Below, one piece after another: positions 1,388 to 41,579 of a stretch of 41,579 bases of DNA. The stretch lies in the IMG/VR virus record IMGVR_UViG_2545824709_000014. The stretch is one strand, 5' to 3'. Position numbers and translations under genes: made by a program. The stretch comes from a virus. Taxonomy: Duplodnaviria; Heunggongvirae; Uroviricota; Caudoviricetes. Within the stretch, counting starts at the first letter, position 1. Each line of letters begins with the position of its first letter. The notes beneath the pieces are model-generated. The model was not told the DNA's origin. It saw only the letters and a list, made by a program, of their open reading frames with translations, and searched no databases.

Positions 1388-1391
1388 AGTA

Positions 1392-8607: not shown

Positions 8608-8619
8608 AAATGACGGTAT

Positions 8620-13376: not shown

Positions 13377-13422
13377 AGGGAAAGGTTGCCATCAGGGGAA
13401 GAAAGGCGGCAGTGCTGCAACT

Positions 13423-13440
13423 TGTATCAGTGCTGATACA
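13423..13440. promoter_or_regulatory. TGT-N12-ACA dyad (Ogr-type late promoter box) upstream of V
   Basis: TGTATCAGTGCTGATACA in the S-V intergenic region. Confidence 0.5.
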
Positions 13441-13444
13441 AAGA

Positions 13445-15213: not shown

Positions 15214-15214
15214 T

Positions 15215-15727: not shown

Positions 15728-15923
15728 AGTCCTCCCGCGAGATCTGCCCGTCGCGCAGAAGCTGGTAGGCTTTGTGTTTGTAGTACCAGTTGATAGCCAG
15801 CATCAGCACACCAATCATCAGGCCGCCCAGCGTTGAGGCATCCTTGATGGACAAATCGCCCAGCCAGGCCAGCACGACGGCGATGCAATACGTGATAAAA
15901 GCGCTGATTCGCTCAAGCGTCAT
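15708..15923 (-). CDS. Y: Holin Y
   Basis: 71 aa small membrane protein directly upstream of the endolysin. Confidence 0.65.
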   Translation of the reverse strand: MTLERISAFITYCIAVVLAWLGDLSIKDASTLGGLMIGVLMLAINWYYKHKAYQLLRDGQISREDYESINR

Positions 15924-15926
15924 AAT

Positions 15927-16130
15927 TCAGTCCCATAGCTGGACGGTCTGCACGGTGGTGGTTGTCGGTATGTCCGGCAGCTCCACCTGCAGCCCGTGAG
16001 GTAAAAAGGGGCCGTATTCGGCAAGCCCCGGATTTGCCTTCAGTACCTGCTCCGTGACACCCTGCGTGCGCCCGTAATGACGCCAGCAAAGTGCGTCCAC
16101 CGTGTCATACTGATGCGCACGCACTTTCAT
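15927..16130 (-). CDS. X: Tail protein X
   Basis: 67 aa; position between L and Y as in P2. Confidence 0.7.
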   Translation of the reverse strand: MKVRAHQYDTVDALCWRHYGRTQGVTEQVLKANPGLAEYGPFLPHGLQVELPDIPTTTTVQTVQLWD

Positions 16131-16657
16131 CAGATAAGCTCCACTGTGCAGTGCGGCGCATCCTGTACCCGGCTGATGGCCCAGCGGGCATCACGCCACA
16201 AATCACCGCTTGCTTCCGCCAGTTCCTCGCCCCGCTTCACACCGGATGCCGTAGCGTCATAGTCCTGATAACGCTCGTTGAGCATGGCGCGTGCCCAGCA
16301 GTAAACCGCGTTGAAATAGTGATGAATGCGCTCACTTTTGCCCTCCAGCTGTTCCGCCGGAACCTCTGCCAGCGAGGCATATCCCAGCATCTGCTGACGT
16401 CTGCGAAACTCATACAGCTCTGCGTTGACCTCCGAAATTGCCGACAGCGCAACCTGCTTTAAACGCGGCTGCGTCACTGTGCCGTCAGTGCGCATGACAC
16501 TGCGAAACTCCGACAGGTCCACATCAGGCCAGAACGGCGTATTTCTGATGATTTCCGCCTGTTCCGGTGCCTGTTCTGGCGCAACAAACTTCATGCTGCT
16601 TTCTCCTGAAATAAAGGGCGGTGGACGGGGTTTTGATGTGGCAGTGCCTTTCGCCAC
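16130..16657 (-). CDS. L: Head completion protein L
   Basis: Synteny M-L-X; the true start may be the internal Met near 16594. Confidence 0.7.
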   Translation of the reverse strand: MAKGTATSKPRPPPFISGESSMKFVAPEQAPEQAEIIRNTPFWPDVDLSEFRSVMRTDGTVTQPRLKQVALSAISEVNAELYEFRRRQQMLGYASLAEVPAEQLEGKSERIHHYFNAVYCWARAMLNERYQDYDATASGVKRGEELAEASGDLWRDARWAISRVQDAPHCTVELI

Positions 16658-16689
16658 CCCGTGCCGCCCGTGCGCGGGGGCACGTTCTG

Positions 16690-17340
16690 TCAGCGGCTGT
16701 CATTGCGCAGTCTGCGCTCCAGCTGCTGTTTGTCTTTTTTCACGCCACAGCGGGGATCGAGCTGTAACGCATGGTTGAGATGATTAAGGGCGGAAGCCGG
16801 ATTGCTTTCACTCAGGACAGCGCCAATCGCTTTATGCAGACGCGCCCGTGACTGGTCCGGCATATCCAGACCGTCTGTCAGCTCCAGCGTCTGCAGCAAC
16901 AGATCGGCATCAAAGCCGGTGGCGGCAAGCATTGCGCTCTGCGCTGCATCTGCCATTTCCTCTGCCAGCACGGTCTGCACGTTGCGGTTACCCAGCGGCA
17001 TCACCCAGCCATGACGCAGGGCATGACGCCCTATCTCCAGCGCCCCGGCATAATCTCCGGCATCAATGCGCCACAGCATCACGTACATCAGCACGTCATC
17101 CTGTTGAGCGCCTCCGGCAGCCAGGACGCCCTCCGCCCAGGCGGCATATTTCGGCAGCAGCTCCACCTTTATTTCCGCTTTTTTCACCGTGGACTGAACG
17201 CCCTTGAGACGGCGGCGGTCTTCCGCCAGCTGCAGCAGCATCAGGTCATAGCCCGACGCGTGGCGAACACTGCCGCCCTCACGGGCGGCCTGTTCAGCCT
17301 GAACGCGCAGGCGATGCTGCCGTGCGGGACTCAGGCTCAT
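16690..17340 (-). CDS. M: Terminase endonuclease (small) subunit M
   Basis: 216 aa; synteny N-M-L. Confidence 0.7.
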   Translation of the reverse strand: MSLSPARQHRLRVQAEQAAREGGSVRHASGYDLMLLQLAEDRRRLKGVQSTVKKAEIKVELLPKYAAWAEGVLAAGGAQQDDVLMYVMLWRIDAGDYAGALEIGRHALRHGWVMPLGNRNVQTVLAEEMADAAQSAMLAATGFDADLLLQTLELTDGLDMPDQSRARLHKAIGAVLSESNPASALNHLNHALQLDPRCGVKKDKQQLERRLRNDSR

Positions 17341-17343
17341 GGT

Positions 17344-18402
17344 TTACGCTCCGGCTTCTGCTGCGGCGGCGCTGAAATCACCAATCTGGATGTTTTCCAC
17401 CAGTGCGGCGCAGCGGTAGTCCTCAACCACATAGGCTTCATTAACGGATTCAAAGTTTTCAATCCGGTCACGTTTCGGGTTGTCGATAACTGAACGGCGG
17501 CGGGTGTCTTCCTGCCAGTAGATGGACAAGTTATCCAGACGGGTGATCAGCAGTGCATTCGGCGGGAAGAACGGCGCACGCACGGCCTGCAGGCCACCCA
17601 TGCGTTTCTGACTGATGATCATATCGGCAGCGAGTTTTTCACTGTTTTCCTGCTCTTTGTTGACCAGTGGGAAATACTTGTCAGACAACAGTTCACGACC
17701 GCAAATCACCACCAGATCGTCATCGTCCTGGTAGACCACGTCGATAAGCTCATTGACGGCATCCATCACCACGGCGTCCAGGTTGGCATATTCGCCACCT
17801 TTACCGACTTTCACCGCGCCCGGTGTGGTTTCACCGCCTGTGGTGGTGCTGCCCATGACGTGATCCGGTGCATCCTCACGGATTTTCTGCAGCCAGCCTT
17901 TGTTCACATCCTGCAGCAGCGGGTTTTCACTACGGTTGGAGGTTTTCGCACGCTTCACGCCGTTAAAGCCGATCATGATGCGGTCCAGTGCCTGACGTTT
18001 CACGATGGCGTCACGGATACGCACCTGGAAATCCTGAAATTTCGCCCACAGGTCCAGCTTCGCGTAGGTCAGCACCGTGTCAAAGTTGGTCTGCTCGCAT
18101 TTGTATTCCACATCGACCATCAGCGTCGGATCGACAGGTTCACGCTCTTTCGCGGTGGTATCAGTGGTTCCGGCAATGGTGCTGCCAACACCCAACCCCA
18201 GCAGCTGACCGGACTGCTCAGTCACTGGCGTGACGTTAATCAGCGTCAGGAAAGCGGCGGACTGCTGGATCTGGTCTTCCAGCGTCTGCTGTACAGACGG
18301 CTCCACGGTGAACTTGCTGGACAGTTCTTCAACTGCCACACCGTTCAGACGCGCCAGCTGCTGCAGGTAAGCGTTAAAAGCAAAGCGGGTATTCTTCTTC
18401 AT
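17344..18402 (-). CDS. N: Major capsid protein N
   Basis: 352 aa; synteny O-N-M; size as P2 gpN. Confidence 0.8.
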   Translation of the reverse strand: MKKNTRFAFNAYLQQLARLNGVAVEELSSKFTVEPSVQQTLEDQIQQSAAFLTLINVTPVTEQSGQLLGLGVGSTIAGTTDTTAKEREPVDPTLMVDVEYKCEQTNFDTVLTYAKLDLWAKFQDFQVRIRDAIVKRQALDRIMIGFNGVKRAKTSNRSENPLLQDVNKGWLQKIREDAPDHVMGSTTTGGETTPGAVKVGKGGEYANLDAVVMDAVNELIDVVYQDDDDLVVICGRELLSDKYFPLVNKEQENSEKLAADMIISQKRMGGLQAVRAPFFPPNALLITRLDNLSIYWQEDTRRRSVIDNPKRDRIENFESVNEAYVVEDYRCAALVENIQIGDFSAAAAEAGA

Positions 18403-18418
18403 CAGGTTTTGTGCTCCA

Positions 18419-19252
18419 TCAGCAATTGGTCAGAGTGTCAGCGGGGGCGTTACCGCCCGTTGCACGCTGGCGGTAGTCCTGGCGGCTGTCTTCATGGCTC
18501 AGCTTGTCCACCAGTTCGTTAAAGGCGGCCTGTTGTGCCTGCAGAACTGTCTCCAGCTCAGACAGACGTTCTTCCTGCTCAGAAAGGGATTTTTCGGTGC
18601 GCGCACTCAGGTTTTGCTGCTCAGTGGCGACCAGTTCCACGGCCTTATGCACATCAGAAAACCGGGCATCGTCGGACTGCTCTTTTTTTGTAAACAGCGC
18701 CGTGACACGGGCAAACAGGGACGGTTTGTCATCCTGGATTTCTTCCAGTTCGATCACCGTTTCCTCTGCGGCGGTAAAGAGATTGGCGGGATTCTGCTTG
18801 CGGTTTGCCAGCGGGTTATGGGCTGCGCTGGCGCTGAATGTCAGCATTTCCGTACCCAGACTGGCTGGATCATCAGTGGCAGCCAGGCCGACCAGGTAGG
18901 CTTTGCCCGTATCAGCAAACTTCGGGCTGACTTCCATAGAGGTGAATAATTTCTGGCCTTTTTTCACCAGTTCCACCAGGGACTCCGTTGGCTCAACGTC
19001 GGCATACAGTGCCATCTTGCCCGCCAGCGGACCCTCCGTGATTTCTTCAGCAAACAGCGCCGTCACCTTGCCGTAGCGGTTAAAGGTGCTGTCCGGCAGA
19101 TAAGACTTGATGTGCTCAAGGTTAATCAGCGCGGTATACACCGCCGGGTTGTAGCTGGCTGCCATCTGTTCCAGCCATTCACGCTGGATTTCGCGTCCGT
19201 CGGTGGTGGCACCTTCCACCCCGATGCGAAAACGCTTTGCTTTCACTGTCAT
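18419..19252 (-). CDS. O: Capsid scaffolding protein O
   Basis: 277 aa; first gene of the O-N-M-L operon, divergent from P. Confidence 0.8.
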   Translation of the reverse strand: MTVKAKRFRIGVEGATTDGREIQREWLEQMAASYNPAVYTALINLEHIKSYLPDSTFNRYGKVTALFAEEITEGPLAGKMALYADVEPTESLVELVKKGQKLFTSMEVSPKFADTGKAYLVGLAATDDPASLGTEMLTFSASAAHNPLANRKQNPANLFTAAEETVIELEEIQDDKPSLFARVTALFTKKEQSDDARFSDVHKAVELVATEQQNLSARTEKSLSEQEERLSELETVLQAQQAAFNELVDKLSHEDSRQDYRQRATGGNAPADTLTNC

Positions 19253-19330
19253 GAGCCGTGCTCCGTTAGAAATAACTTACTGGAGCCTTATGGTTGCGGT
19301 GATGGGGGCAGTGAAACAATGCGCGGTATT

Positions 19331-19348
19331 TGTACCGACAACCACACA
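19331..19348. promoter_or_regulatory. TGT-N12-ACA dyad (Ogr-type late promoter box) in the divergent O/P promoter region
   Basis: TGTACCGACAACCACACA in the 142-bp O-P intergenic region. Confidence 0.5.
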
Positions 19349-19394
19349 AACCGCAGGCGGGGAAAGCCTTCATTCAAGGCTGTAGGTTTGTGCC

Positions 19395-21161
19395 ATGAAC
19401 ACCACACTGACACCCGCAGATCTCGATCCCCGTCGGCAGGCCATGCTGCTGTACTTTCAGGGATACCGCGTAGCCCGCATTGCTGAAATGCTGGGCGAGA
19501 AAGTTGCAACCGTTCACAGCTGGAAAAAACGCGACAAGTGGGGTGACTATGGGCCGCTGGATCAGATGCAGCTCACCACCGCCGCACGCTACTGCCAGCT
19601 CATCATGAAGGAGCACAAAGAAGGGAAAGATTTCAAAGAGATTGACCTGCTGGCGCGCCAGTCTGAGCGCCACGCGCGGATCGGCAAGTTTAACAATGGC
19701 GGCAACGAAGCCGACTTAAACCCTAACGTCGCCAACCGCAACAAAGGCCCGCGCCGTCAGCCGGAAAAGAATGTCTTCACCGATGAACAGATTGAGAAGC
19801 TGGAAGAAATCTTCCATTCCTCCATGTTCAACTACCAGCGCCACTGGTGGGAAGCCGGAAAAACCAACCGCATCCGCAACCTGCTGAAGTCACGCCAGAT
19901 CGGCGCGACCTTTTACTTTGCCCGTGAAGCCCTGATTGACGCCCTGCTTACCGGACGTAACCAGATTTTCCTTTCCGCCAGTAAAGCACAGGCCCACGTC
20001 TTTAAGCAGTACATCATCGACTTCGCCAAAGAAGTCGAGGTGGAGCTGAAAGGCGATCCGATGGTGCTTCCTAACGGGGCCACGCTTTACTTCCTCGGCA
20101 CCAATGCCCGCACGGCCCAGAGTTACCACGGCAACCTGTATCTGGATGAATATTTCTGGATACCGAAATTCCAGGAGCTGCGCAAAGTGGCTTCCGGTAT
20201 GGCTATTCACAAAAAATGGCGACAAACCTATTTTTCCACGCCATCCAGCCTGACACACAGTGCTTATCCGTTCTGGTCCGGTGCGCTGTTTAACCGTGGG
20301 CGCAACAAAGCCGATAAGGTGGACATCGACCTGTCCCACAACAATCTGGCCCCCGGCTTGCTTTGCGCAGACGGGCAATACCGCCAGATAGTCACCGTGG
20401 AAGATGCGGTGCGCGGCGGCTGTAACCTGTTCGACCTCGACCAGCTACGCATGGAGTACAGCCCGGACGAATATCAGAACCTGCTGATGTGCGAGTTCGT
20501 GGACGATCTCGCGTCCGTGTTTCCGCTCAGCGAGCTGCAGGCGTGCATGGTGGACAGTTGGGAAGTCTGGACCGACTTTCATGCACTGGCCCTGCGCCCG
20601 TTTGGCTGGCGCGAAGTGTGGATCGGTTATGACCCGGCAAAAGGTACACAGAACGGCGACAGTGCCGGATGCGTGGTGGTGGCTCCGCCAGCCGTGCCGG
20701 GCGGCAAGTTCCGCATTCTTGAGCGTCACCAGTGGCGCGGAATGGACTTTCGCGCCCAGGCTGACGCCATCAAAAAACTGACCGAACAGTATAACGTGAC
20801 CTATATCGGCATCGACTCGACCGGCGTCGGTCACGGGGTTTACGAGAACGTGAAAGCGTTTTTTCCTGCCGTCCGGGAGTTTGTCTACAACCCCAACGTT
20901 AAAAACGCCCTGGTACTCAAGGCCTACGACATTATCAGCCACCGCCGTCTGGAGTTTGACGCCGGGCACACCGACATTGCGCAGTCATTCATGGCAATCC
21001 GTCGCGCCACAACCGCCAGCGGCAACCGCCCGACCTATGAAGCCAGCCGCAGCGAAGAAGCCAGCCACGCCGATCTGGCCTGGGCAACGATGCACGCACT
21101 GTTTAACGAACCGCTGCAGGGCGAATCCGCCAATATCAGCAATATTGTGGAGATTTTTTGA
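19395..21161 (+). CDS. P: Terminase ATPase (large) subunit P
   Basis: 588 aa; divergent from O, overlaps the Q start; size as P2 gpP. Confidence 0.85.
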   Translation: MNTTLTPADLDPRRQAMLLYFQGYRVARIAEMLGEKVATVHSWKKRDKWGDYGPLDQMQLTTAARYCQLIMKEHKEGKDFKEIDLLARQSERHARIGKFNNGGNEADLNPNVANRNKGPRRQPEKNVFTDEQIEKLEEIFHSSMFNYQRHWWEAGKTNRIRNLLKSRQIGATFYFAREALIDALLTGRNQIFLSASKAQAHVFKQYIIDFAKEVEVELKGDPMVLPNGATLYFLGTNARTAQSYHGNLYLDEYFWIPKFQELRKVASGMAIHKKWRQTYFSTPSSLTHSAYPFWSGALFNRGRNKADKVDIDLSHNNLAPGLLCADGQYRQIVTVEDAVRGGCNLFDLDQLRMEYSPDEYQNLLMCEFVDDLASVFPLSELQACMVDSWEVWTDFHALALRPFGWREVWIGYDPAKGTQNGDSAGCVVVAPPAVPGGKFRILERHQWRGMDFRAQADAIKKLTEQYNVTYIGIDSTGVGHGVYENVKAFFPAVREFVYNPNVKNALVLKAYDIISHRRLEFDAGHTDIAQSFMAIRRATTASGNRPTYEASRSEEASHADLAWATMHALFNEPLQGESANISNIVEIF

Positions 21162-22248: not shown

Positions 22249-24456
22249 TTAAGTACGTAACATAATTTGCTGTTGAACTTGGATAGGCTGTAAGGTTTGA
22301 TATTTCTGCCTAATTAGGTTATATAAATCCGGCATTTCTTCAGCAGATAAAGTCACGACAAGAACATATGGTAGTTCTTCTAACTCGTCAACATCAATAG
22401 GCATACCACAGTCTCTACCATAGTAGATAATATCAAAGCATGGGTTTGTCAGCTCATTCGGTTTAAATTTGTGTTCACTTCTTAACGTAGTCTCCCATTT
22501 ATGTGCATCAACACGTTGCTCATTTTCATCTGCATAAACATTTTTTAGATTAAAAAGAGGAAACGTTAACCCGGAACTATCTGAAACACCTTTTCTCATG
22601 GTTACTTCTAGACCGCTTCTTGTATAATTCAAAGGATGTTCCGCATCTACAGGACTGGAAAAGCAGAATGTCGCTCTTAAATTTACACATCCACGCATAG
22701 GTACATCTGGAAACGGAATAGGTGCTCGCATGTGTTGTGATGGTTTTAAAGTACCTTGATATATAACTTTAACTTCATCATCATCACAAAATATTACTTC
22801 ACTAAGATCATGAGGAAATCGTCCCCAACCAACTTCAGCACGATTGATATTATTGCTCTCCGCATGATGTATAAGCAGAGCTTTAGCCGTAAGTGGTGTA
22901 ATGTTGTAATTTAGAGAAGCACTTAACGCGATTGCTTGCCTCAGGACTAATGGAGCTGAAAAGCTAGTCCCCGCAGTGCGGGCAAGACCATTAACCATAG
23001 GGCTGTATACCTGGAATGGCTCATCAGAATGTCCTCCAAATGCAACTCCATCAGGCTTCACAAAGCCAGGGCTTCGTCCAGGACCAATACAACTGTAAGA
23101 ACATCTTTCCCAACTATCAGATAAAGAGGTTGCTGCACCTACTGACAGACCATTAACTAAATCAGCAGGTGGTTGAATTCGATTTAACTTGGCAGGCAGC
23201 TGACCATCATTTCCAACCGCGACAGTACAAAGTGTTTCTCCTGATGCAAGTATCTCCTCAAGAGTTGAGGTCCACACATGCACGTCATCGTCATCAACAG
23301 GTAATCTAGGTCCTAAGCTCAGATTGATATAATCATATTTTTTTTGTTCTAATACACTTTTAATACGGATCAGAACGTCAAAAAGATCGACATCTGAGTT
23401 ATTAACATTGGAATCCAGTACACGATAATGGTCAATATTACAATAAGGAACACTTAATTTTTCCGTTTCAGAGCCAAGAACACCAAATAACACAGTAGAG
23501 GTGACATCCTGTCCATGAGAAAGAAGTTTTGCATTAGTACTAGCATTACCGTTGAAAGTGTACTCTGTTACCCAAGGATTGAAATCATCGATCCCCAATC
23601 CACCATCGAATATGGCAACCTTTATATGTGGGTTTACCGCTCCTTCAGATGGTAAACTAAGGTTAGATGTTTGAATCACAGAACGTGATATAACAGGCTC
23701 ACTTAGCCTTAATTCAGGAAGTTCTCTCAAAGTCCTGAGAAATGAAAACTCTGCAACTTTTAAAGCTACATCTTTACTAGCCTTAATAGGCATAAAGGTT
23801 AGCCCCTTAACCTTTATACTTCTTGCCTTATCTATAACAGCACCATTTTGCGAAGCAAAAACTTCAAAACTATCGACAATAGAGGAACTTGTATCAGGAG
23901 TATGTAAGGCGACCTCAATACTCATAACTTCATTGCTATTAATCGTTTTTACTTTATCTGAAACTTCCAGTATTGAAATATTTTCTAAGGTGACAAAATC
24001 ATTTTGCTGCCCTTTCGTTAGGGTATCTTGATTTACAGAGTCTAAGAATGATTGAAAACTTTCTTTTTTGCCAGAAACATAAATACACGCTGTAGTGTAT
24101 TCCTCTTTTCGCCCTCTTTTTTTAATATCTTTTCTAGGTTTTACTTTTACAGCCTTACTGCCTATGCTTTCTAGGGAAAATCGCTCAAAAAGACTTACTG
24201 GAAAATAACTTTTTGCTAAGAATGCCGGATGCAAAACAAATTTTGCTACAGCCTTACCTTCAGGCATTGCTAACAATGGAAGGGTATTAATTTCCTCAAT
24301 CAACTCTTCCAGTTGAGCAGATATCACTGGTTTATTTTCTGAATAAGAGTAAGGTTTATTCTTTTCACCTCCACCTCTGTTAAGTTTAACAGGGTTAGTT
24401 AGTGTTTCACCATAGCCAAGAAGCATATTTTTATCATTCATTGTCTTCATCCTCAA
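22249..24456 (-). CDS. Subtilisin-like (S8) serine peptidase with long N-terminal extension; candidate IetS-like defence protease
   Basis: 735 aa; S8 triad motifs VAIFDGGLG (Asp), SHGQDVTS (His), GTSFSAPLV (Ser); AT-rich; coupled to the upstream ATPase gene. Confidence 0.7.
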   Translation of the reverse strand: MRMKTMNDKNMLLGYGETLTNPVKLNRGGGEKNKPYSYSENKPVISAQLEELIEEINTLPLLAMPEGKAVAKFVLHPAFLAKSYFPVSLFERFSLESIGSKAVKVKPRKDIKKRGRKEEYTTACIYVSGKKESFQSFLDSVNQDTLTKGQQNDFVTLENISILEVSDKVKTINSNEVMSIEVALHTPDTSSSIVDSFEVFASQNGAVIDKARSIKVKGLTFMPIKASKDVALKVAEFSFLRTLRELPELRLSEPVISRSVIQTSNLSLPSEGAVNPHIKVAIFDGGLGIDDFNPWVTEYTFNGNASTNAKLLSHGQDVTSTVLFGVLGSETEKLSVPYCNIDHYRVLDSNVNNSDVDLFDVLIRIKSVLEQKKYDYINLSLGPRLPVDDDDVHVWTSTLEEILASGETLCTVAVGNDGQLPAKLNRIQPPADLVNGLSVGAATSLSDSWERCSYSCIGPGRSPGFVKPDGVAFGGHSDEPFQVYSPMVNGLARTAGTSFSAPLVLRQAIALSASLNYNITPLTAKALLIHHAESNNINRAEVGWGRFPHDLSEVIFCDDDEVKVIYQGTLKPSQHMRAPIPFPDVPMRGCVNLRATFCFSSPVDAEHPLNYTRSGLEVTMRKGVSDSSGLTFPLFNLKNVYADENEQRVDAHKWETTLRSEHKFKPNELTNPCFDIIYYGRDCGMPIDVDELEELPYVLVVTLSAEEMPDLYNLIRQKYQTLQPIQVQQQIMLRT

Positions 24457-25516
24457 CCGTCAAAACCTTACGTACTTGTGACCTTGAAATCCCCAAATCT
24501 AAAGCGATTTTTCTTTGTGATACATTGTTGTTTGACATGTTTTTTATAACATCATCAAGTGACACGCCATCTAACAACTCATCAATTAAAGCTGAACTTA
24601 AAGGAATATCTTCTATAATGGCATTTCTTTTAGCTTGATTTATAGCTCTCTCAAGAACTGCATATGAAACTTTTTCGAGTTTTGTAGCAATATAGTACGA
24701 TAAGCTATCTCCAATATTTTTAGAACAGAGATATCTTCTCATTAGGTCTTGTGTTGGATATTCAAAATCAATAACTCGATCGAATCTTCTCCATGCAGCA
24801 GGATCAAGCAGCTCCGCATGGTTAGTTGCTGCTATAAGAACAGACGTATTTGGCCATTCATCAATTGCTTGCAATAATACTGTAACTAATCTTTTTAGTT
24901 CTCCAACATCTGTTGCATCATCCCTTTTTTTAGCAATCGCATCAAATTCGTCAAGAAGCAGTACACAAGGGAATGACGAAGCATAATTGAGGACTGCCTT
25001 AATATTATTACCCGTTTTCCCCAAGTAGCTACTCATTACACTTGCGAGATCTAATGTTAACAATGGCATATCGAGTTTAAAAGCGAGCCACTTTGCAGCC
25101 AAAGTCTTCCCCACACCGGGTGGTCCTCCCATAAGAAGAGATTTGGACGGATGCAACCCTTCTTTATAAAGGCGTTCTTTCATTTCCCACTCAGCCACAA
25201 ATCGATTCAGTTGAACATCAGTTTTTGTTGGCCAAACAGGTTCAACATCAATGACCACAGGATATGTTTCAACTAGCAGCTTTTGTCTTGTATCCGCATC
25301 AACAGGTGTTATTTTAGGAACAACTGGATTAGCCCTTTCGACTGCAATTGCGCCACCTGTATTAATAAGTAAATCTTCTAATTTACCCGCTAATTCAGGA
25401 GATTCTTTTTTTAGTTTTTTTGCCATAATCCGCAACCGCATGAGGAGACTTTCCCTCTTCCCGGTAAGAGCATCACTGACAACATCAATGAGCATTTCGT
25501 TTGTAACGTTTATCAT
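24434..25516 (-). CDS. AAA+ ATPase with C-terminal HTH-like tail; candidate IetA-like defence ATPase
   Basis: 360 aa; Walker A GGPPGVGKT, Walker B VLLLDEFD; C-terminal QRKIALDLGISRSQVRKVL; AAGGGTGG SD upstream. Confidence 0.7.
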   Translation of the reverse strand: MINVTNEMLIDVVSDALTGKRESLLMRLRIMAKKLKKESPELAGKLEDLLINTGGAIAVERANPVVPKITPVDADTRQKLLVETYPVVIDVEPVWPTKTDVQLNRFVAEWEMKERLYKEGLHPSKSLLMGGPPGVGKTLAAKWLAFKLDMPLLTLDLASVMSSYLGKTGNNIKAVLNYASSFPCVLLLDEFDAIAKKRDDATDVGELKRLVTVLLQAIDEWPNTSVLIAATNHAELLDPAAWRRFDRVIDFEYPTQDLMRRYLCSKNIGDSLSYYIATKLEKVSYAVLERAINQAKRNAIIEDIPLSSALIDELLDGVSLDDVIKNMSNNNVSQRKIALDLGISRSQVRKVLTVEDEDNE

Positions 25517-31725: not shown

Positions 31726-32358
31726 ATGATACAGGTAAAGGCTGGAGAGAATACAGGGGGAAGAGAGGCTATCCATAGACTAATGGCAGCCTATGATTTC
31801 AAGTCCAGACAGCAACTTTGCGATCACTTAGGCGCATCAAAAAGCACCATGGCAAACAGATACTTAAGAGATAGTTTTCCTGCAGAGTGGGTGATTCAGT
31901 GCGCCTTGGAAACAGGAGTTTCTTTACTGTGGCTAACCACCGGACAGGGAGAGCCAGGTCCAAACATTGAACCTAAAAAAAATATCAATTCCGTGAACTC
32001 CAGCAAGGTTGTACCTCTTTCTGAACTAGTATCTCCTGAAATTGACAAGGCGACTCTCAACGGTGGTTTATTGGTCGATGCTGGAAAAGCAATCATTGAT
32101 AGCAGCATACTCCCCTCAGACTCAAGCAACCTACTGCTGGTGACTACTTCTGGTGATTCTTATTTAATAGATCGCAACCAAACACCACCAGTAAATGGTA
32201 TGTGGTTAGTCGATATCGACGGGATAAAAAGCATTGTTAAATTGACTCGGCTCCCGGGAAACAAATTAGTAGTGCATCAGGATGATTCATCGTTTGAGTG
32301 CGGTCTGGATGACATTGAGGTAGTAGGCCGCGCACTGAAAATCATTAAGAGCCTTTGA
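31726..32358 (+). CDS. cI: CI immunity repressor (186 type)
   Basis: 210 aa; N-terminal HTH region resembles 186 CI; immediately followed by int. Confidence 0.7.
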   Translation: MIQVKAGENTGGREAIHRLMAAYDFKSRQQLCDHLGASKSTMANRYLRDSFPAEWVIQCALETGVSLLWLTTGQGEPGPNIEPKKNINSVNSSKVVPLSELVSPEIDKATLNGGLLVDAGKAIIDSSILPSDSSNLLLVTTSGDSYLIDRNQTPPVNGMWLVDIDGIKSIVKLTRLPGNKLVVHQDDSSFECGLDDIEVVGRALKIIKSL

Positions 32359-32359: not shown

Positions 32360-33373
32360 ATGACCATCAGAAAACAGCCGAACGGAAAATGGTTGTGTGA
32401 GTGCTATCCCAATGGACGCAATGGCAAGCGCGTGCGTAAGCAATTTGCTACGAAAGGCGAAGCCATTGCGTTTGAAAGCTTCACAATGGAAGAAGTGAAT
32501 AAAAAACCGTGGTTGGGTGAAAAGGATGATCGGCGACGCCTATCAGAATTAATTGAGCTTTGGTATTCCCTGTATGGTCAAACACTCGCAGACCCCAAGC
32601 GCCTCATGGCGAAACTTAGAATTATCTGTAATGGTCTAGGCGATCCCATCGCCTCAGAACTGACAGCTGGTGACTTTACAAAATACCGCGAAGCACGGTT
32701 AAAAGGTGAAATACGAAATGAAGATGGCACGCTTATGTCGCCCGTAAAGCCCCGCACGGTAAACCTTGAACAGCGCAATCTATCATCTGTGTTCGGTACA
32801 TTAAAAAAACTAGGACACTGGTCAGCACCAAACCCGCTGGCAGGACTTCCGACCTTCAAAATTGCCGAAGGTGAGCTGGCTTTTCTTTCCACGGACGAAA
32901 TCAAGCGCCTGTTGGCGGCATGTGCTGAATCTCAAAACCCTAGCTTACTAATGATTGCAAAAATATGCCTAGCTACTGGCGCACGGTGGAGTGAAGCCGA
33001 AAATCTGCAGGGCCACCAAATATCGAAATACCGAATTACTTATACAAAAACAAAAGGCAAGAAAAACAGAACAGTACCCATATCACAGGAGCTGTATGAC
33101 GAACTCCCAAAGAACAGAGGGAAGTTATTCTCACCATGTAGAAAAGCCTTTGAACGAGCAGTAAAACGGGCAGGTATAGATCTACCGGATGGCCAATGCA
33201 CCCACGTGCTGCGACATACGTTTGCTAGCCACTTTATGATGAATGGCGGGAACATACTTGTGCTAAGGGATATTTTGGGACATTCGGATATCAAGATGAC
33301 CATGGTTTACTCACATTTCTCACCAGATCATCTTGAAGATGCCGTTACTAAGAACCCATTAAACTTGATATAA
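32360..33373 (+). CDS. int: Tyrosine integrase (P2/186 family)
   Basis: 337 aa; C-terminal HVLRHTFASHFMMNGG...LGHSDIKMTMVYSHF with catalytic R, H-x-x-R and Y. Confidence 0.85.
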   Translation: MTIRKQPNGKWLCECYPNGRNGKRVRKQFATKGEAIAFESFTMEEVNKKPWLGEKDDRRRLSELIELWYSLYGQTLADPKRLMAKLRIICNGLGDPIASELTAGDFTKYREARLKGEIRNEDGTLMSPVKPRTVNLEQRNLSSVFGTLKKLGHWSAPNPLAGLPTFKIAEGELAFLSTDEIKRLLAACAESQNPSLLMIAKICLATGARWSEAENLQGHQISKYRITYTKTKGKKNRTVPISQELYDELPKNRGKLFSPCRKAFERAVKRAGIDLPDGQCTHVLRHTFASHFMMNGGNILVLRDILGHSDIKMTMVYSHFSPDHLEDAVTKNPLNLI

Positions 33374-33386: not shown

Positions 33387-35144
33387 CTATTTCATCAAGT
33401 AATCCAATTCATCCTTCATAGGTATAACTTGCTCATAAAGTCTATGGTAGGATTTTCCAATTGCACCCCTAAATTGAATAAGTTTAGGGGAAAAGCTACC
33501 GATATTAATAATATGTTCTTGCGCTATACCAGGATATGGATCGATAAAAATAATCTCTGTCATACCTAACTGATAAGCTTTTTTAGCACAAAGTTCACAA
33601 GGGCTAGCTGTAGTATATAGTTTCCCTCCATTAATACCGACCCCACCATATTTGGCCAATTGCAAAAAAGCATTCTCCTCTGCGTGCAATGCACGGGTAT
33701 GCACTTGATTCCCTTTCTTTTCATCATCAAGGCTGTTGTGAATATCTTTAAAACAATATGGCAAATTAAGTCCTTTAAAAACAGTAGAACTTGAATCACT
33801 CGCCCTTATTTTTATTAAATTTTCTTTAACTTTACTCCTAAATTTTGTATTACTTCGTTCGTACAGGCTATATGTTCCCTCATCAAAATCATGCAATAAC
33901 CCATCAAATGACCTCATAGAACAAGGAACTTGACCTTTTGCTACATCGTTCCAACCAACTGACTTGATAGAGTTATCATTATCTGTCACAACCGCCCCTA
34001 CTTGCCTAGATATACATCCAGAATTTAGTTTTACAGTATATGCAACTTGCATAACCCTTTCCATGGCGGTAGGAGATATTAATCCAGGGTGTTGCATTAA
34101 TGATACATACCACGCAATTTGTGCTTTGAGAAAATTATTATTATCAAATTCTTTTTTAGGGTTAAAAAAATGTATATCTGAAATTTCAATGCATTTTTTT
34201 ACATTAGGATTAGTAAGATGATTATACTCGCCATCTCCTTTACCAGATTCTTCATCATTAATTTTTTTTATCTGTTCCTCTGAGAACTTATGTAATTTCT
34301 TTAAATATCTGGTTCGATGTTCATCTGGTGCATTTATAGAAACCAGATGGAATGCAGCATATCTATCTTTGAAGAATTTAGCTTCATACGGGTTACGTAT
34401 CGCATCAATGACTATATACGCTTTATTATTCTTTACTTTTCTAATTATTTTAATAACACGATTAATTGTTTCAGGTAAATGAAAAACAGCCTTTGGAATA
34501 AAGTCTTGATTTTCATAATCTACATCAACCTTCCCTATTCTTCTAATTGACTTTCCTGCTGACTGATATAGCTCAATATATAAACCTGGCTCTAGTTCAT
34601 TTAATTCCCTTTTAAAATCCCGTGTAAATTTTCGAGTAAGAGTTAATATCCTAATAAAGGTATCTTTCCCCCTGCCTTTAAAGTCAATCTCATCATCATG
34701 ATTAAGAAGATTTTTTATCACCTCAAGATATTTTATCTTCAACAAACTTTTAGCGAACACACCATTAACAACCAGTTTCTTGGCTGCCTTAAAGGAAATC
34801 GAATTTTCTTTTTTATCGGGGATTTTACTTGCAGAAAACTGAATGAATTTAGCTAAGGCCGATGGAGATAAAAGGAGCAAATATATTGAAATGAGATCAC
34901 TGACCTTTATCGAATAGAAGTTCTTCCAATGAGTCTCTGCAAAATTTTTTACTATTTCATAACGCCGCAAATCCAATCCTTTATAATACTCAGCCAAGAC
35001 GTTACTATCTGGAAAAGATATTTCTTTTTGTTCTAAAATATTTGCTGCAGTAGTACATCCTGAGCCAGTTCTCCCAGTTAAACCAATAAGAATAAATTGA
35101 CTATTTTCTAAAAAAAGCTCACTAATAAATTTGTGTTCTCTCAT
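33387..35144 (-). CDS. P-loop kinase-like domain fused to CMP/dCMP-type deaminase domain; candidate AvcD / defensive dCTP deaminase
   Basis: 585 aa; N-terminal P-loop GLTGRTGSGCTT; C-terminal zinc-deaminase signature HAEENA...SPCELC; AT-rich; lies between int and attR. Confidence 0.65.
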   Translation of the reverse strand: MREHKFISELFLENSQFILIGLTGRTGSGCTTAANILEQKEISFPDSNVLAEYYKGLDLRRYEIVKNFAETHWKNFYSIKVSDLISIYLLLLSPSALAKFIQFSASKIPDKKENSISFKAAKKLVVNGVFAKSLLKIKYLEVIKNLLNHDDEIDFKGRGKDTFIRILTLTRKFTRDFKRELNELEPGLYIELYQSAGKSIRRIGKVDVDYENQDFIPKAVFHLPETINRVIKIIRKVKNNKAYIVIDAIRNPYEAKFFKDRYAAFHLVSINAPDEHRTRYLKKLHKFSEEQIKKINDEESGKGDGEYNHLTNPNVKKCIEISDIHFFNPKKEFDNNNFLKAQIAWYVSLMQHPGLISPTAMERVMQVAYTVKLNSGCISRQVGAVVTDNDNSIKSVGWNDVAKGQVPCSMRSFDGLLHDFDEGTYSLYERSNTKFRSKVKENLIKIRASDSSSTVFKGLNLPYCFKDIHNSLDDEKKGNQVHTRALHAEENAFLQLAKYGGVGINGGKLYTTASPCELCAKKAYQLGMTEIIFIDPYPGIAQEHIINIGSFSPKLIQFRGAIGKSYHRLYEQVIPMKDELDYLMK

Positions 35145-35225
35145 TTCGCACCTGTTACGTTATAACACAAGTCTCTTCCATGTTGTATTTATTAGTATTT
35201 ATTAAAAAACAAGAAATTGCAACAT

Positions 35226-35276
35226 AGCGGCAACAATACACACACCAAGAAAATGGCGGCAACTTGGCGGCAGAGC
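35226..35276. repeat. Three GGCGGCA(A/G) motifs upstream of the deaminase gene and inside attR
   Basis: AGCGGCAAC, ATGGCGGCAAC and TTGGCGGCAGAG within 50 bp; related motifs occur at 448-470. Confidence 0.3.
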
Positions 35277-35366
35277 TTTAAAAACGTATAAAACGGATAA
35301 ACACAAAACAATACCAACCAACTGTTTTTGAAAACAAATTATTGTTTTCATTATAATATAAATGGT

Positions 35367-35411
35367 ATGTAGGAATTTCGGACGCGGGTTCAACTCCCGC
35401 CAGCTCCACCA
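35367..35411. repeat. att core, right copy (duplicated 3' end of ssrA)
   Basis: 45 bp identical to 358-402; followed by its own hairpin and T-run, then a P4-type integrase. Confidence 0.85.
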
Positions 35412-35576
35412 CTTTTTAGTTGTTTGAAGTTCAATGAAGTCTACTAAGCCCACACAGCACAAGCTCTGCGGGCTTTTTTACGTCTATTGTCGTCCAGTGA
35501 GAATTGCTGAGAACTACGAGTTATGGCACCCTGAATGGGACCCATTAAGAAGGGTCCAAAAACCGAGGGTCCCAAA

Positions 35577-36806
35577 ATGGCAAAAATCGCTAAGAAGCTC
35601 ACTGACACTGAAATCAAAAGCACCAAGCCAGCCGATAAAGAAATCAACTTGTTTGACGGTGATGGTCTGATTCTACGAATCGCTCCTTTGGCGAAAGGAG
35701 GCAAGAAAAATTGGTATTTCAGGTATGCAGTACCAGTGAGCAAGAAAAGAACCAAAATGAGCCTTGGGACATATCCTCACCTTACCCTTGCAAGAGCCAG
35801 AGCCTTACGTGATGAATATCTCTCCTTTCTGGCAAATGGTGTTGATCCCCAAATCCATAACAACGATAAGGCGAAGGCATTAAAGAGTGCTACTGAGCAC
35901 ACTCTCCAAGCCGTAGCGCGGAAATGGTTAGATGAGAAGGTAAAGACATCAGGTATCTCACAAGACCATGCAGCAGACATCTGGCGCAGCTTAGAGAGAA
36001 ATGTCTTTCCCGGTCTGGGTAATGTCCCTATCAATGAGATCCGACCTAAGCTCTTAAAACAACACCTTGATCCTATTGAGCAACGAGGCGTATTGGAAAC
36101 TCTACGCCGTATCATTTCACGTCTGAATGAAATCTTCCGGTGGGCAGCTACTGAAGAACTTATTGAGTTCAACCCGGCTGACAACCTTGGTCAAAGATTC
36201 AGTAAACCAAAAAAGCAAAATATGCCTGCCCTTCCCCCAAGCGAATTGCCAAGGTTTATGGAATCTTTGACGAATGCGTCAATCCGGTTGGAAACACGTA
36301 TGCTAATTGAATGGCAATTGTTGACATGGGTTCGTCCGGGTGAAGCCGTTCGCGCAAGGTGGTCTGATATTGATACAACCAACAGCATTTGGAACATTCC
36401 TGCTGATTTCATGAAAATGAAAAAGCTTCACAAAGTTCCTTTGAGTAAAGAAGCTTTGCGCATCCTTGAATTAATGAAATCAATAAGTGGGCATAGAGAA
36501 TGGGTTTTCCCCAGCATAAAAGCGCCTCTTAATCATATGCATGAACAAACAGCCAACGCAGCTATCATCCGAATGGGGTTCGGAGGCGAGCTTGTAGCTC
36601 ACGGTATGCGTTCTATTGCACGAACAGCGGCAGAGGAGTCTGGTAAATTCAGAGCTGAAGTTCTTGAGGCAGCGCTTGCCCACTCGAAAAAAGATGAAAT
36701 TATCGCAGCATACAATCGTGCAGAATATCTGATAGAGCGACAGAGTTTGATGCAATGGTGGAGTGATTACGTTCAAGCTCAAAGATCAAATGCTCTGGTA
36801 GCCTAA
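35577..36806 (+). CDS. Tyrosine integrase, P4 family
   Basis: Start placed at MAKIAKKLTDTEIKSTKPADKE (GAGG 8 nt upstream), a typical P4-Int N-terminal arm-binding region; C-terminal HGMRSIARTAA...AYNRAEYLIERQSLMQWWSDY; ORF track start is 35535. Confidence 0.85.
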   Translation: MAKIAKKLTDTEIKSTKPADKEINLFDGDGLILRIAPLAKGGKKNWYFRYAVPVSKKRTKMSLGTYPHLTLARARALRDEYLSFLANGVDPQIHNNDKAKALKSATEHTLQAVARKWLDEKVKTSGISQDHAADIWRSLERNVFPGLGNVPINEIRPKLLKQHLDPIEQRGVLETLRRIISRLNEIFRWAATEELIEFNPADNLGQRFSKPKKQNMPALPPSELPRFMESLTNASIRLETRMLIEWQLLTWVRPGEAVRARWSDIDTTNSIWNIPADFMKMKKLHKVPLSKEALRILELMKSISGHREWVFPSIKAPLNHMHEQTANAAIIRMGFGGELVAHGMRSIARTAAEESGKFRAEVLEAALAHSKKDEIIAAYNRAEYLIERQSLMQWWSDYVQAQRSNALVA

Positions 36807-37332: not shown

Positions 37333-39099
37333 TTATGGTAGCATCATTGATACATAATCCACACCAATCCTTGAGCTATACTGAGACGCTATAGCCTGAT
37401 ATCTTTCTGCATAACCAGTTCTCAGTTGAGATTTAAGTTTGAGTCGGACAGGAACATTTTGCACGTTGCCATCCATATTACTTAAAAACACGGCAGAAAT
37501 AATATTTTTTTCTTCGCCATCAACTGTTGTTCCATGATTCAACACCACCATATAATCAACAACAGGAAGCGTTTTATCCCCTTCGAAAATAGAGAGATAT
37601 TTTCTTTGATTTTTATGCATTACATATATATATTTCGAATGTTCAGCAAATGGCAATGCTTTACTCTGACTGGCGTTAAAAAGCTCCAGAACTTTAATGA
37701 GCCTGTGCGGACTTAATCTTACATGGTGAGGGTCGTTACCCTGAGTAGGAACCAAATCACATGCCGCAGATACACATAAATACCATTTGTTCGACTCTGT
37801 ATCAAAGAAAATAGTGCCAGTAGAAATATGACCATCTTCAAAATTCTTTGAAGACAAATTCATATTTAAAGCATGATACATTTCGTGATAAGTATCATTA
37901 TTTGATGGCAGATCCATTTTTGAAGAGCAATATTGGAGCAATGCAGCAACTCCGCTGTTAGCGTATTCATTTGAATAGCTATCAAAAACACTTTTGATAA
38001 ATTCATCCAGCGTATTATTATTTTTAAGTCTTTGATAAAGCTCTTCTGATAAATTACCAAATACAAAGTCAATATTTCTACATCTAATATCAGGCGAGTC
38101 TGATTTTAATATCTCATTTAACCACGCAGCTTGACCGTAATGATCGTTAGCCAAATGATTTACAAAAGATAAAACCTCAGCTTCGATTGCATTCTGAATT
38201 TCAGATTTTATTAACTGATAATAAGATGGTTTCCATTCAATGAGAGAATCATTGAGAGTTTGCCAAATCCTATCTCCATCGTTTTCATGATCATCTTGAA
38301 CCTTATGAAATAGGGAGACAAAGATATTACCACATTGAATCCATTTTACTCCGCTTTCATCACCCCGAATGACATTGCCAGATGTGTTGCTAGAAATAAT
38401 TGCATTTCTAGACACAGCATATTCTGCAATCATTTTTGCAATGAAGTTTTTATCCTTTTGATCCTCCAACACAGCATCATCATGTATTAATCTTTTAATT
38501 CTTCTACAAGGCTTACTGTCTTTAATATAGGCTATTGTTTCATCTCTTGTGAGAGCTTTATTACCATTATCATTTAAGTTCGGTAATACAACGTCTTCCC
38601 AATAACTTTGGACATCTTCATTATCGTAGTCAATGATCAAGCTGTTGATATCCAGAGCACCTTTGAGAGTCGATGATATCTGCATCCAAACCGTTTCTAA
38701 ATTCTCTCTAGTATATATTACAATCATATTTAAATGATCGGAGTCTTTCAAATCTTGTAATAGTTTAAGTGTTTTATCAGGTGCATTATTATCAAGATGA
38801 TAATCTACAATAATAAGATCTGATTTTCTAATCCGATCCACATCGAAATTAACAGAACCATTGTCAACATCACAAATCATATTTTTAGATTGAAAAAAGC
38901 TCTCAAGAGTAGCGGCTCGTTTAGATGAGTCAATTTTGTTGTAGTCTAAATCAACTTCGTTATTCAACGCCCTGATTGATTCAGAATACGTCAGAAAATC
39001 GTCATCAATCATGACAACGGAACGAATTGCATTTTCGCAGAAAGTTTTCTGGACAAGAGAATTATAATTTGCCACTGTCATATTAGAACTCCACTCCAT
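37333..39099 (-). CDS. Receiver (REC)-like N-terminal domain fused to a ~450-aa domain of unknown function
   Basis: 588 aa; VVMIDDD acidic pocket, LIIVDYHLD candidate phospho-acceptor Asp, MIVIYT; start overlaps the upstream kinase-like gene by 17 nt; AT-rich. Confidence 0.6.
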   Translation of the reverse strand: MEWSSNMTVANYNSLVQKTFCENAIRSVVMIDDDFLTYSESIRALNNEVDLDYNKIDSSKRAATLESFFQSKNMICDVDNGSVNFDVDRIRKSDLIIVDYHLDNNAPDKTLKLLQDLKDSDHLNMIVIYTRENLETVWMQISSTLKGALDINSLIIDYDNEDVQSYWEDVVLPNLNDNGNKALTRDETIAYIKDSKPCRRIKRLIHDDAVLEDQKDKNFIAKMIAEYAVSRNAIISSNTSGNVIRGDESGVKWIQCGNIFVSLFHKVQDDHENDGDRIWQTLNDSLIEWKPSYYQLIKSEIQNAIEAEVLSFVNHLANDHYGQAAWLNEILKSDSPDIRCRNIDFVFGNLSEELYQRLKNNNTLDEFIKSVFDSYSNEYANSGVAALLQYCSSKMDLPSNNDTYHEMYHALNMNLSSKNFEDGHISTGTIFFDTESNKWYLCVSAACDLVPTQGNDPHHVRLSPHRLIKVLELFNASQSKALPFAEHSKYIYVMHKNQRKYLSIFEGDKTLPVVDYMVVLNHGTTVDGEEKNIISAVFLSNMDGNVQNVPVRLKLKSQLRTGYAERYQAIASQYSSRIGVDYVSMMLP

Positions 39100-40801
39100 T
39101 GAACTGGATCACAAAATTAGCGCCATCTTTTATTAAATAGTTATCGCCTTCATCAGGTTCTGAATACCATATTTTATGATGTGCAACAGCAAGGTTTTCT
39201 CGACATAGATACAGACCTACCCCATGTCCATTTGCTCTTTTGCTATAAAATAGTTCAAATAGTCGCGGGATATCATCGGTATCAATTGCCGGACCAGAAT
39301 TTGCTATGATAACCAAAGAATTCACAAAACCAATCTTTATGAGCCTATTATTTGACAGACTGACCCAATACATTGCATTGTTGATAATATTAGTAAAAAC
39401 AGGATAGATCCTTGATGGTATATCTGTTATTGCGATTTGCTTAAACTCTTCACTAAATTCAATAGTTATTCGTTGCCGTTCGAAACGCTCCCCAAAGAAC
39501 TTCAGGACATAATCCATGATATTTTTTCCAGTTATTCTCTGCCTGGATTGATAACCTGATATTTTCAAAGGTGATAAGAAACGTATTTGTTGAGTAAGCG
39601 ATCTGTGAGCATTTAACGCCAATGAAAAACCAGGGTGTTCTTTTACAGAAGTAGGAAGAGAGTTTAGTCCTCTGGTTACCATAGAATCCATTTCTTCAAG
39701 TTCATGAGATATTATCTCAACACTAATACCTAACTGTGCAAGCGCGTTTAAACTTTTAGCTTTTTCTTCAAAATATGAGCGTTCTTCTTCAGATAATGAG
39801 AATGCTGAATCTAAGTTTATACCTTCAAATAATCTATCGAGACCTTTTATTATTGATTGATATTTGAAAGTTAGGGTATCAACTGACTCAACATATAAAC
39901 TATCGAGCAAATTAAACACATTTTCAATTTGTGAATCATTATCTATTGAATCAACAACTGATATAGTTTTAGCATAATAATCACTTCGATCAACCTTTAT
40001 TTCATCGGCCCATTTTTTTAAAAGAGAATGTATCTTCTCCTCTATCGTGTTATTAAACTTAGTTAGTTTAGAATTAATAATACCTTGATTTTTTTCAAGG
40101 TGATTTTTCGCTGACAATGAAGGCTCAAGTTTATTTAATTCAGAATCAAGTTTATTAATTGCTAACTTCATTTGTAGAATATACGCAGAGAACTCATTAA
40201 ATTTATCTCTGTAGTCTCTATATTTCTCTTCATACATTCCAAGTTTTGGAGGTTTGATAGGCGTTTTAATTTCACTGCGCAACGCATCTAAGTTTGTAAG
40301 ATCACTGTCTATAATTTTAAGATAGTTTAAATCTAACGAACCATCAGTTTTATCAAGCTTAGTTTTCAGCCTTTTAACAGCCTCCAAGGAAGCATCAAGA
40401 ACTGGTGTCTGATTCTTCAAAGCTTCTGAAAAACTTTTTTGTGTTGATTTTCGAGCTTGTTGTTGAGCAGATTTTCTTAACTCTTTTTCACGCTTAACTT
40501 GTTCTAAAAGCTCTTTACGGTCATCAGAACGTGAACCAAAAAATCTATCAGCAAGTTCAGTTAACAAATTAGATATAATAGTTTTCAGTTCTCTTGCAGC
40601 CTGGTTTCTTATGAATCCCTCTCTCCCCGACTTATCTTTCAGCTCTTTATTACTGGATTGAGTAATTCCAATATAACCAAAAATCCTTCTATTAGACCAA
40701 TAATATCGCCCTGCATTCCATGAACGTCTTTCTTCTATCTGGAAGAAATCATTATCTACTCGACCATAAGGTAATACTCTCAAGCTATCCCTAAAAATCA
40801 T
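39083..40801 (-). CDS. Histidine-kinase-like protein (coiled-coil N-terminus, H-box, C-terminal GHKL ATPase); possibly 5'-truncated
   Basis: 572 aa; H-box-like ISHELEEMD; N-box FTNIINNAMYW; G-box-like ANSGPAID and GHGVGLYL; reading frame stays open upstream of the first ATG into the IS3 end. Confidence 0.6.
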   Translation of the reverse strand: MIFRDSLRVLPYGRVDNDFFQIEERRSWNAGRYYWSNRRIFGYIGITQSSNKELKDKSGREGFIRNQAARELKTIISNLLTELADRFFGSRSDDRKELLEQVKREKELRKSAQQQARKSTQKSFSEALKNQTPVLDASLEAVKRLKTKLDKTDGSLDLNYLKIIDSDLTNLDALRSEIKTPIKPPKLGMYEEKYRDYRDKFNEFSAYILQMKLAINKLDSELNKLEPSLSAKNHLEKNQGIINSKLTKFNNTIEEKIHSLLKKWADEIKVDRSDYYAKTISVVDSIDNDSQIENVFNLLDSLYVESVDTLTFKYQSIIKGLDRLFEGINLDSAFSLSEEERSYFEEKAKSLNALAQLGISVEIISHELEEMDSMVTRGLNSLPTSVKEHPGFSLALNAHRSLTQQIRFLSPLKISGYQSRQRITGKNIMDYVLKFFGERFERQRITIEFSEEFKQIAITDIPSRIYPVFTNIINNAMYWVSLSNNRLIKIGFVNSLVIIANSGPAIDTDDIPRLFELFYSKRANGHGVGLYLCRENLAVAHHKIWYSEPDEGDNYLIKDGANFVIQFNGVEF

Positions 40802-40922: not shown

Positions 40923-41579
40923 TGATCCTACCCACGTAATATGGACACAGGCCTAAGCGAGGTTCTTGTTTTCAAATTGTTCCGGACTGAGGCCGCCACA
41001 CCAACTGTGCCGCCGCCACCGATTGTAATCACATTCGATATAATTAAACACCGTTGCCCGCATTATTTCCCGGCTGATAAAGTGTTCTCCATGGATACAT
41101 TCCACTTTCAGCGAATGAAAGAAGCTTTCCACGCAGGCATTATCGTAGCAGCAACCTTTTGCGCTCATACTTCCACGCAGATTATGCCGCTTCAGTTGCG
41201 CCTGATAATCTGCTGAACAGTACTGGCCTCCACGGTCCGTGTGAACGATAACGTTCCGGGGCCTCGTACGCCGCCACAGCGCCATCTGCAGGGCATCGCA
41301 GGCCAGTTGCGCCGTCATGCGTGGCGACATTGACCAGCCAATAACGGCACGTGACCACAGGTCAATGACCACTGCCAGATACAGCCAGCCTTCATCTGTA
41401 CGTAAGTACGTGATGTCTCCTGCCCACTTCTGGTTCGGGCCACTGGCGTAAAAATCCTGCTCCAACAGATTTTCTGATACAGGCAGGCCGTGTGCGCGGT
41501 AGCTGACCGGGCTGAACTTCCGGGAGGCCTTTGCCCTCAGTCCCTGACGGCGCAGGCTTGCCGCCACGGTTTTTACGTT
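40923..41579 (-). mobile_element. IS3, right end (partial, continues beyond the window)
   Basis: Terminal inverted repeat TGATCCTACCCACGTAATATGGACAC...; encodes the IS3 orfB transposase. Confidence 0.8.
40953..41579 (-). CDS. insF: IS3 transposase OrfB (InsF), partial
   Basis: ...[22 protein letters not shown]...[11 protein letters not shown]...[22 protein letters not shown] matches IS3 InsF as I recall it; DDE motif region present. Confidence 0.8.

Follow-up and report, generated by a model that had tools for sequence, protein, structure and literature searches.

The prophage and its ends

The window, by which is meant the whole stretch of 41,579 nt analysed here (record IMGVR_UViG_2545824709_000014), opens with a complete ssrA (tmRNA) gene at 40-402, identified by ARAGORN and by Rfam (tmRNA, 295.8 bits). 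The 3' end of this intact gene (358-402, plus strand) is repeated exactly, over 45 bp and in direct orientation, at 35367-35411, where it is recognised as a tmRNA fragment. The repeat marks the ends of a prophage, the first copy being its left att core and the second its right att core. What lies between belongs to the P2 family and, with genes for CI, CII, Fil, Apl/Rha-like and TraR/DksA proteins, to the 186 subtype. Late genes occupy approximately 1.4-21 kb, a low-GC hotspot 21.5-26 kb, and there is a replication endonuclease gene; further genes encode a DNA adenine methylase, TraR/DksA, DUF2732 and DUF5347 proteins, Fil, CII, an Apl/Rha-like protein and CI (31726-32358). A tyrosine integrase gene of 186/P2 type (int, 32360-33373, plus strand) follows; RefSeq names its product a site-specific integrase, and the Citrobacter orthologue has Int_N and Phage_integrase domains.

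Between int and the right core is the gene of interest here, a predicted anti-phage dCTP deaminase gene of the DCD/AvcD family at 33387-35144 (stop codon included) on the minus strand, with an ATG start and an ORF of 585 aa. It is convergent with int, the spacer being 13 bp, and 222 bp separate its start codon from the right att core, so that the location between prophage integrase and att core given in the preliminary description is borne out. The AT-richness remarked on there is equally evident, GC content being 33.2% in the gene versus 55.6% in the prophage late genes (1500-21000) and 45.7% in int. Upstream of the gene come a cassette-specific leader of about 105 nt (35145-35250, minus strand) and then the attP P-arm (35251-35366), in which the motifs ATGGCGGCAA and TTGGCGGCAG are repeated at 35253-35273 as presumed Int arm-type sites. 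Motifs related to those of the arm are also present beyond the left core, at 437-466. Within the arm there is a sigma-70-like sequence, TTGAAA-18-TATAAT (11 of 12 positions; 35328-35357, plus strand), directed toward the att core; sigma-70-like sites are no more numerous in this region than in shuffles of it, and this one is not conserved in other prophages.

The other end of the prophage and its interior have features of their own. Between the left core at the ssrA 3' end and an ogr-like zinc-finger ORF (1392-1607, minus strand) is an AT-rich ORF of 237 aa with a hydrophobic N-terminus (576-1289, plus strand). It gave no match in Pfam or PADLOC, and is a second att-adjacent cargo gene, at the opposite prophage end. 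The low-GC hotspot, flanked by the replication and portal genes, is the classic one of P2 and is occupied by an IetAS pair at 36-40% GC (22249-25516, minus strand), comprising IetS (735 aa, with a subtilase domain; PADLOC 1.8e-48) and IetA (360 aa, an AAA ATPase; PADLOC 6.7e-84). Counting the dCTP deaminase at the int-att edge, the prophage thus has two separate defence systems.

Directly after the right core a P4-type integrase gene (35535-36806, plus strand) starts an unrelated island, and two integrative elements are therefore in tandem at ssrA. Just past the core, within 35412-35530, a terminator-like hairpin at 35461-35475 (plus strand) matches the start of Rfam IsrM at 53 bits, the gathering score being 376. 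Further into the island, at 37333-40801 on the minus strand, two overlapping low-GC genes encode a 588-aa protein with a Response_reg_2 receiver (PF19192) and a 572-aa protein with HEF_HK (PF19191) and HATPase_c domains. Neither protein had a PADLOC match, and the pair looks like a candidate two-gene conflict system. At the right edge of the window GC content rises again, with an IS3-family transposase ORF (204 aa, rve-like) at 40953-41567 on the minus strand.

Domains, motifs and family assignment

The preliminary description had reported a 585-aa ORF with an N-terminal P-loop and a C-terminal deaminase signature, and all of the motifs that it quoted can be placed by residue. The N-terminal domain, approximately residues 1-355 (34080-35144, minus strand), is P-loop-kinase-like on the combined indication of sub-threshold Pfam matches, PHROG and weak Foldseek similarity. 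It contains a degenerate Walker A, GLTGRTGSGCTT, at residues 21-32 (35049-35084, minus strand), which agrees with the variant form typical of the family, GxxGxGSGC/S-T. The C-terminal domain, approximately residues 356-585 (33390-34079, minus strand), is that of a zinc-dependent dCMP/dCTP deaminase according to PF00383, sequence matches to PDB entries and Foldseek. Its catalytic HAE at residues 487-489 (33678-33686, minus strand), the beginning of HAEENA at 487-492, provides His487 as zinc ligand and Glu489 as proton shuttle, and the zinc-binding PCELC at residues 515-519 (33588-33602, minus strand) provides Cys516 and Cys519.

A profile search for a dCMP_cyt_deam domain together with a P-loop kinase had been proposed as a check. 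It returned PF00383 (dCMP_cyt_deam_1) at 4.8e-15 over residues 361-533 and, for the N-terminal domain, only matches under threshold (AAA_18, CoaE and Cytidylate_kin2), with PHROG 139 (dNMP kinase) at 2.6e-4. The full-length assignment comes from the NCBIfam equivalog NF041025, 'anti-phage dCTP deaminase', which scores 420.5 bits, above its curated cut-off of 400 bits, with residues 17-577 aligned to the whole profile (1-437 of 437). The PADLOC dCTPase model PDLC02373 matches at E 2.1e-146. Together with the RefSeq name of the protein and its 75% identity to the characterised enzyme of Escherichia coli AW1.7, these matches support membership of the anti-phage dCTP deaminase (DCD/AvcD) family, as the architecture had suggested at the outset.

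The gene is already known. PGAP, PADLOC and DefenseFinder-type models name it, and an identical protein, WP_001513130.1 (present for instance in E. coli strain 127), is called 'anti-phage dCTP deaminase' in RefSeq; the exact sequence occurs under that name in 178 public contigs. By megablast, 6 of 5,426 complete E. coli genomes contain the gene (99.7-100% identity), all six with the same annotation. The PHROGs entry containing the protein, phrog_8118, is listed as of unknown function. The family itself is large (at least 4,391 proteins of the database searched reach E <= 1e-10), and 399 of its loci are found among species-representative genomes of several phyla.

How far does the term 'kinase' apply to the N-terminal half? 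The P-loop of the preliminary description stands. The Walker A, however, is degenerate, GxxxxGC[T], with Cys30 replacing the kinase lysine, and the domain is for this reason probably a nucleotide-binding or regulatory module instead of a true kinase. 'Kinase' is here a description of fold, kinase activity being only putative.

Conservation, predicted structure and selection

In an alignment of 30 homologues reaching down to 57% identity, the stretch from G21 to T31 is invariant, as are G29, C30, C377, C408, HAE and PCELC. The HAE aligns with that of the T4 and S-TIM5 dCMP deaminases, and PCELC with the PCxxC of solved dCMP deaminases. Sequence matches in the PDB are to single-domain dCMP deaminases (T4 Cd, S-TIM5, PBCV-1 bi-DCD, Streptococcus mutans and human), with both halves of the catalytic domain aligned. 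No structure with the two-domain arrangement of the family was found in the PDB by sequence search, with which Foldseek agrees; the matches are to single-domain dCMP deaminases only.

An AlphaFold2 model made with the 30-sequence alignment has a mean pLDDT of 76 and a pTM of 0.73. Its C-terminal domain resembles dCMP and bifunctional dCMP/dCTP deaminases (Foldseek, target-normalised TM 0.61-0.79), and a deaminase fold, on the prediction of which the original proposal had been made to depend, is thus present in the model. In the N-terminal domain strands and helices alternate; similarity of this half to dephospho-CoA kinases is weak (target-normalised TM 0.39-0.50, the highest being 0.50 for 4zo4; E 0.07-0.12), and the model suggests its fold only weakly.

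Comparison of the deaminase gene with its counterpart in a Citrobacter prophage gives a dN/dS of 0.107. At synonymous sites the deaminase gene (dS 0.93) and int (dS 0.90) have diverged to the same extent between the E. coli and Citrobacter prophages. It follows from these values that purifying selection acts on the gene and that it has diverged along with the prophage, not arrived recently. That the gene might be a pseudogene was considered and rejected, with the ORF intact, the catalytic residues invariant and dN/dS at the value given.

Characterised relatives and other alleles

The closest comparison with a tested enzyme, of the sort that had been called for, is with that of E. coli AW1.7 (WP_045268677.1), which is identical to the window protein at 437 of 586 positions (75%) from end to end and has the same two-domain architecture. 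The GRTGSGCTT P-loop, HAE and PCELC are identical in the two proteins; G29 and C30 have the same positions in both, and C370 and C401 of AW1.7 correspond to C377 and C408. The window protein has 585 aa versus 576 aa, with insertions of eight residues at about 106-113 and of two at about 475. The AW1.7 dCTP deaminase defends against phages and depletes dCTP in T7 infection (Tal et al. 2022, 10.1101/2021.04.26.441389), and its mutation at G29/C30 or at C370/C401 abolishes both dCTP depletion and defence (10.1101/2021.04.26.441389). At 75% identity the phage range of AW1.7 is not transferable to the window allele. The two genes also differ in setting. That of AW1.7 is in a tRNA-Phe island beside a P4-type integrase and a DUF927 primase-like gene, whereas the window gene is in a P2/186 prophage. 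The AW1.7 island (1-7559 of that locus) also encodes an Arm-DNA-binding protein, is satellite-like in layout and is present in Citrobacter freundii genomes.

The AvcID system of Vibrio cholerae VSP-1 (DcdV-DifV) is the other point of reference. AvcD has P-loop-kinase-like and dCMP-deaminase domains like those of the window protein, both of which it needs; it is of 532 aa in place of 585 and is paired with the RNA AvcI. AvcID becomes active after transcription shut-off, with deamination of both dCTP and dCMP (Hsueh et al. 2022/2023). At the position of window Cys30 Vibrio AvcD has a serine, whose replacement by lysine inactivates it (Hsueh et al. 2022). A tested AvcD of ETEC H10407 (WP_096882215.1), looked for as a possible prophage-slot allele, was not found in the searches made of complete E. 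coli genomes or among the cluster members listed.

Nearer in position are alleles in the same slot of other prophages. These are E. coli NCTC9038 WP_032248869.1 (577 aa, 70% identity; this allele type is in 20 genomes), E. coli E1433 WP_096960926.1 (580 aa, 70%; in 4 genomes) and that of a Citrobacter braakii P0002 prophage (83% protein identity). All three have slot, orientation, attP arm and ssrA core as in the window, but their leader sequences differ, and in NCTC9038 the gene is separated from int by 380 bp instead of 13 bp.

The int-att slot and the limits of the cassette

The limits of the inserted segment can be drawn by comparison with phages that lack it. Salmonella phage SEN8 (Felsduovirus) and Yersinia phage MLG42 match both flanks of the deaminase gene and do not match across it. 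In SEN8 ATGGCGGCAttTTGGCGGCAG begins 3 nt after the int stop and is followed by the 45-bp ssrA core and then by sequence near-identical to window 403-470; relative to SEN8, the window has 1.87 kb inserted between int and the arm sites. The cassette so bounded extends from 33374 to about 35250 and consists of approximately 1.9 kb, the ORF and some 105 nt of private leader. BLAST comparison of prophages with different alleles places the boundary at the same point, -107/-108 from the ATG. The attP arm is conserved in four prophages carrying different deaminase alleles, and in SEN8, where it comes directly after int. The earlier view of the gene as cargo, not a core P2 gene, is confirmed by SEN8, in which int and the attP arm have no such gene between them.

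The int-att slot of P2-like phages is known from published work as a minor defence hotspot, accounting for 3% of P2 defence systems; in an earlier paper Rousset et al. described only the cos-proximal P2 hotspot.

The leader and the matter of an inhibitory RNA

How would such an enzyme be held in check? In Vibrio the minimal functional AvcI is an RNA of 152-174 nt within a transcript of about 300 nt, encoded immediately 5' of AvcD and on the same transcript (Hsueh et al.). The sequences of AvcI RNAs are not conserved between homologues (Hsueh et al. 2022), with the consequence that a homology search cannot show that an AvcI is absent.

The leader of the window gene has a Shine-Dalgarno sequence, AGGTG, and a promoter-like TTGCAA-17-AATACT. 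The latter is the best promoter-like site under lenient scoring, is shared with the Citrobacter copy and would give a leader of about 40 nt, though as a match to consensus it is weak; a standard promoter scan found no sigma-70 site at its threshold on the minus strand upstream of the gene. Predicted folding of the 222 nt that separate the ATG from the att core is no more stable than that of shuffled controls (z = -1.17). A permissive Rfam scan of the region gave nothing on the deaminase strand, the only match, on the opposite strand, being the ssrA fragment. By these means, folding and Rfam, and by alignment of the upstream sequences of the AW1.7-type, Citrobacter, NCTC9038 and E1433 loci, no AvcI-like RNA was identified.

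About 105 nt of private DNA is less than 152-174 nt, and so is too little room for an AvcI of Vibrio size within the cassette; the next 117 nt upstream are the attP arm, common to prophages with different alleles. Private leaders of the alleles in the int-att slot are of 81-107 nt. The AW1.7-type cassette differs in this respect. Some 220 nt of upstream DNA, about twice the amount in the window, travel with the gene across genera and show coding-like divergence, which leaves room there for an AvcI-like RNA. In the window an equivalent of AvcI may overlap the arm, may overlap the ORF or may be lacking. With private leaders as short as those of the int-att slot, the transcript of an inhibitory RNA, if there is one, would have to extend over the attP arm and core, or some other restraint would have to operate. 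The proposition that the dCTP deaminases of this slot work without any cassette-borne AvcI, under AvcI-independent or att-spanning control, seems to us unlikely.

Proposed function and its alternatives

We consider the probability to be about nine in ten that this is a functional, single-protein dCTP deaminase of the DCD/AvcD type, carried as cargo of approximately 1.9 kb in the int-attP arm slot of a 186-like prophage at ssrA, and acting by the mechanism of its relatives. The foundation for this is what has been described above, namely the assignment to the family, the intactness of the catalytic residues, the fold of the model, the signal of purifying selection and the position as cargo; the enzymatic activity, trigger and defence phenotype of the window allele are proposed by analogy, as is the way in which this copy would be kept inactive. 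On such a scheme the lysogen would make the deaminase constitutively and hold the enzyme inactive. A lytic phage that shuts off host transcription would then cause the restraint, which in Vibrio AvcID is the labile RNA AvcI, to be lost. Phages of 186 type themselves depend on host RNA polymerase, which would explain why the system is not triggered by induction of its own prophage. Once released, the C-terminal deaminase (His487/Glu489/Cys516/Cys519) would convert dCTP, and probably dCMP, to deoxyuridine forms. The N-terminal P-loop domain would be required, probably in a nucleotide-binding or regulatory capacity. Collapse of the deoxycytidine pool would leave the invader with stalled replication or misincorporated uracil, to the benefit of the lysogen population and of the resident prophage.

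The behaviour of AvcID as a type III toxin-antitoxin system, with filamentation when AvcD is overproduced without AvcI, raises the issue of whether the deaminase serves first of all as an addiction toxin by which the prophage is stabilised, with loss of the element removing a labile inhibitor, poisoning by deoxycytidine depletion ensuing and defence being secondary. A gene at the extreme edge of a mobile element, beside att and co-diverged with int, is well placed for that. Yet excision would remove toxin and antitoxin together, neither an RNA nor a gene that could be the antitoxin was identified at this locus, and related alleles cloned alone with their native upstream DNA have been published as defending against phages. 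We regard a primarily addictive role as very improbable. Still further from the evidence, and in our opinion having the slimmest of chances, is a role in nucleotide metabolism like that of T4 Cd, supplying dUMP and dTTP for the prophage's own lytic replication. T4 Cd and the S-TIM5 and PBCV-1 bi-DCD enzymes (1vq2, 4p9c and 7fh4) do share the C-terminal fold and the zinc and catalytic motifs of the window protein, and PHROG 174, 'dCMP deaminase', matches it at 9.7e-24. These metabolic enzymes are, however, single-domain proteins of 126-193 aa that lack the P-loop domain. The similarity to them is confined to about 180 residues at 19-30% identity, whereas the full-length architecture and score are those of the defence family. 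The gene is also missing from the close phage relatives SEN8 and MLG42 and, at 33% GC, is opposite in orientation to int, at the prophage edge and outside the replication module.

Might the protein edit nucleic acid, in the manner of APOBEC, MafB19 or DddA, mutating phage DNA or RNA in place of depleting free nucleotides? The thought comes from weak Pfam matches to MafB19-deam (E 0.001), Bd3614-deam, APOBEC_N and NAD1, all of which fall short of the gathering score and are overlain by the far stronger PF00383 match. Sequencing with the AW1.7 enzyme, the relative at 75% identity, revealed no editing of DNA or RNA (10.1101/2021.04.26.441389, legend to Fig. S2), and hardly any weight can be given to this possibility. 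Depletion of free deoxycytidine nucleotides by a defensive deaminase is the reading that we retain.

Significance

The gene is a correctly recognised and ordinary instance of an annotated defence gene in a catalogued minor hotspot, and as such adds little. It has modest value as an example, in that a single 186-like prophage carries two defence systems and, from E. coli to Citrobacter, its deaminase and its integrase have diverged together. Should a restraining RNA extend over the att site, regulation of the enzyme would differ between the integrated and the excised state of the phage. With their short private leaders, the alleles of the int-att slot are convenient for testing how universal RNA control of the AvcI type is.
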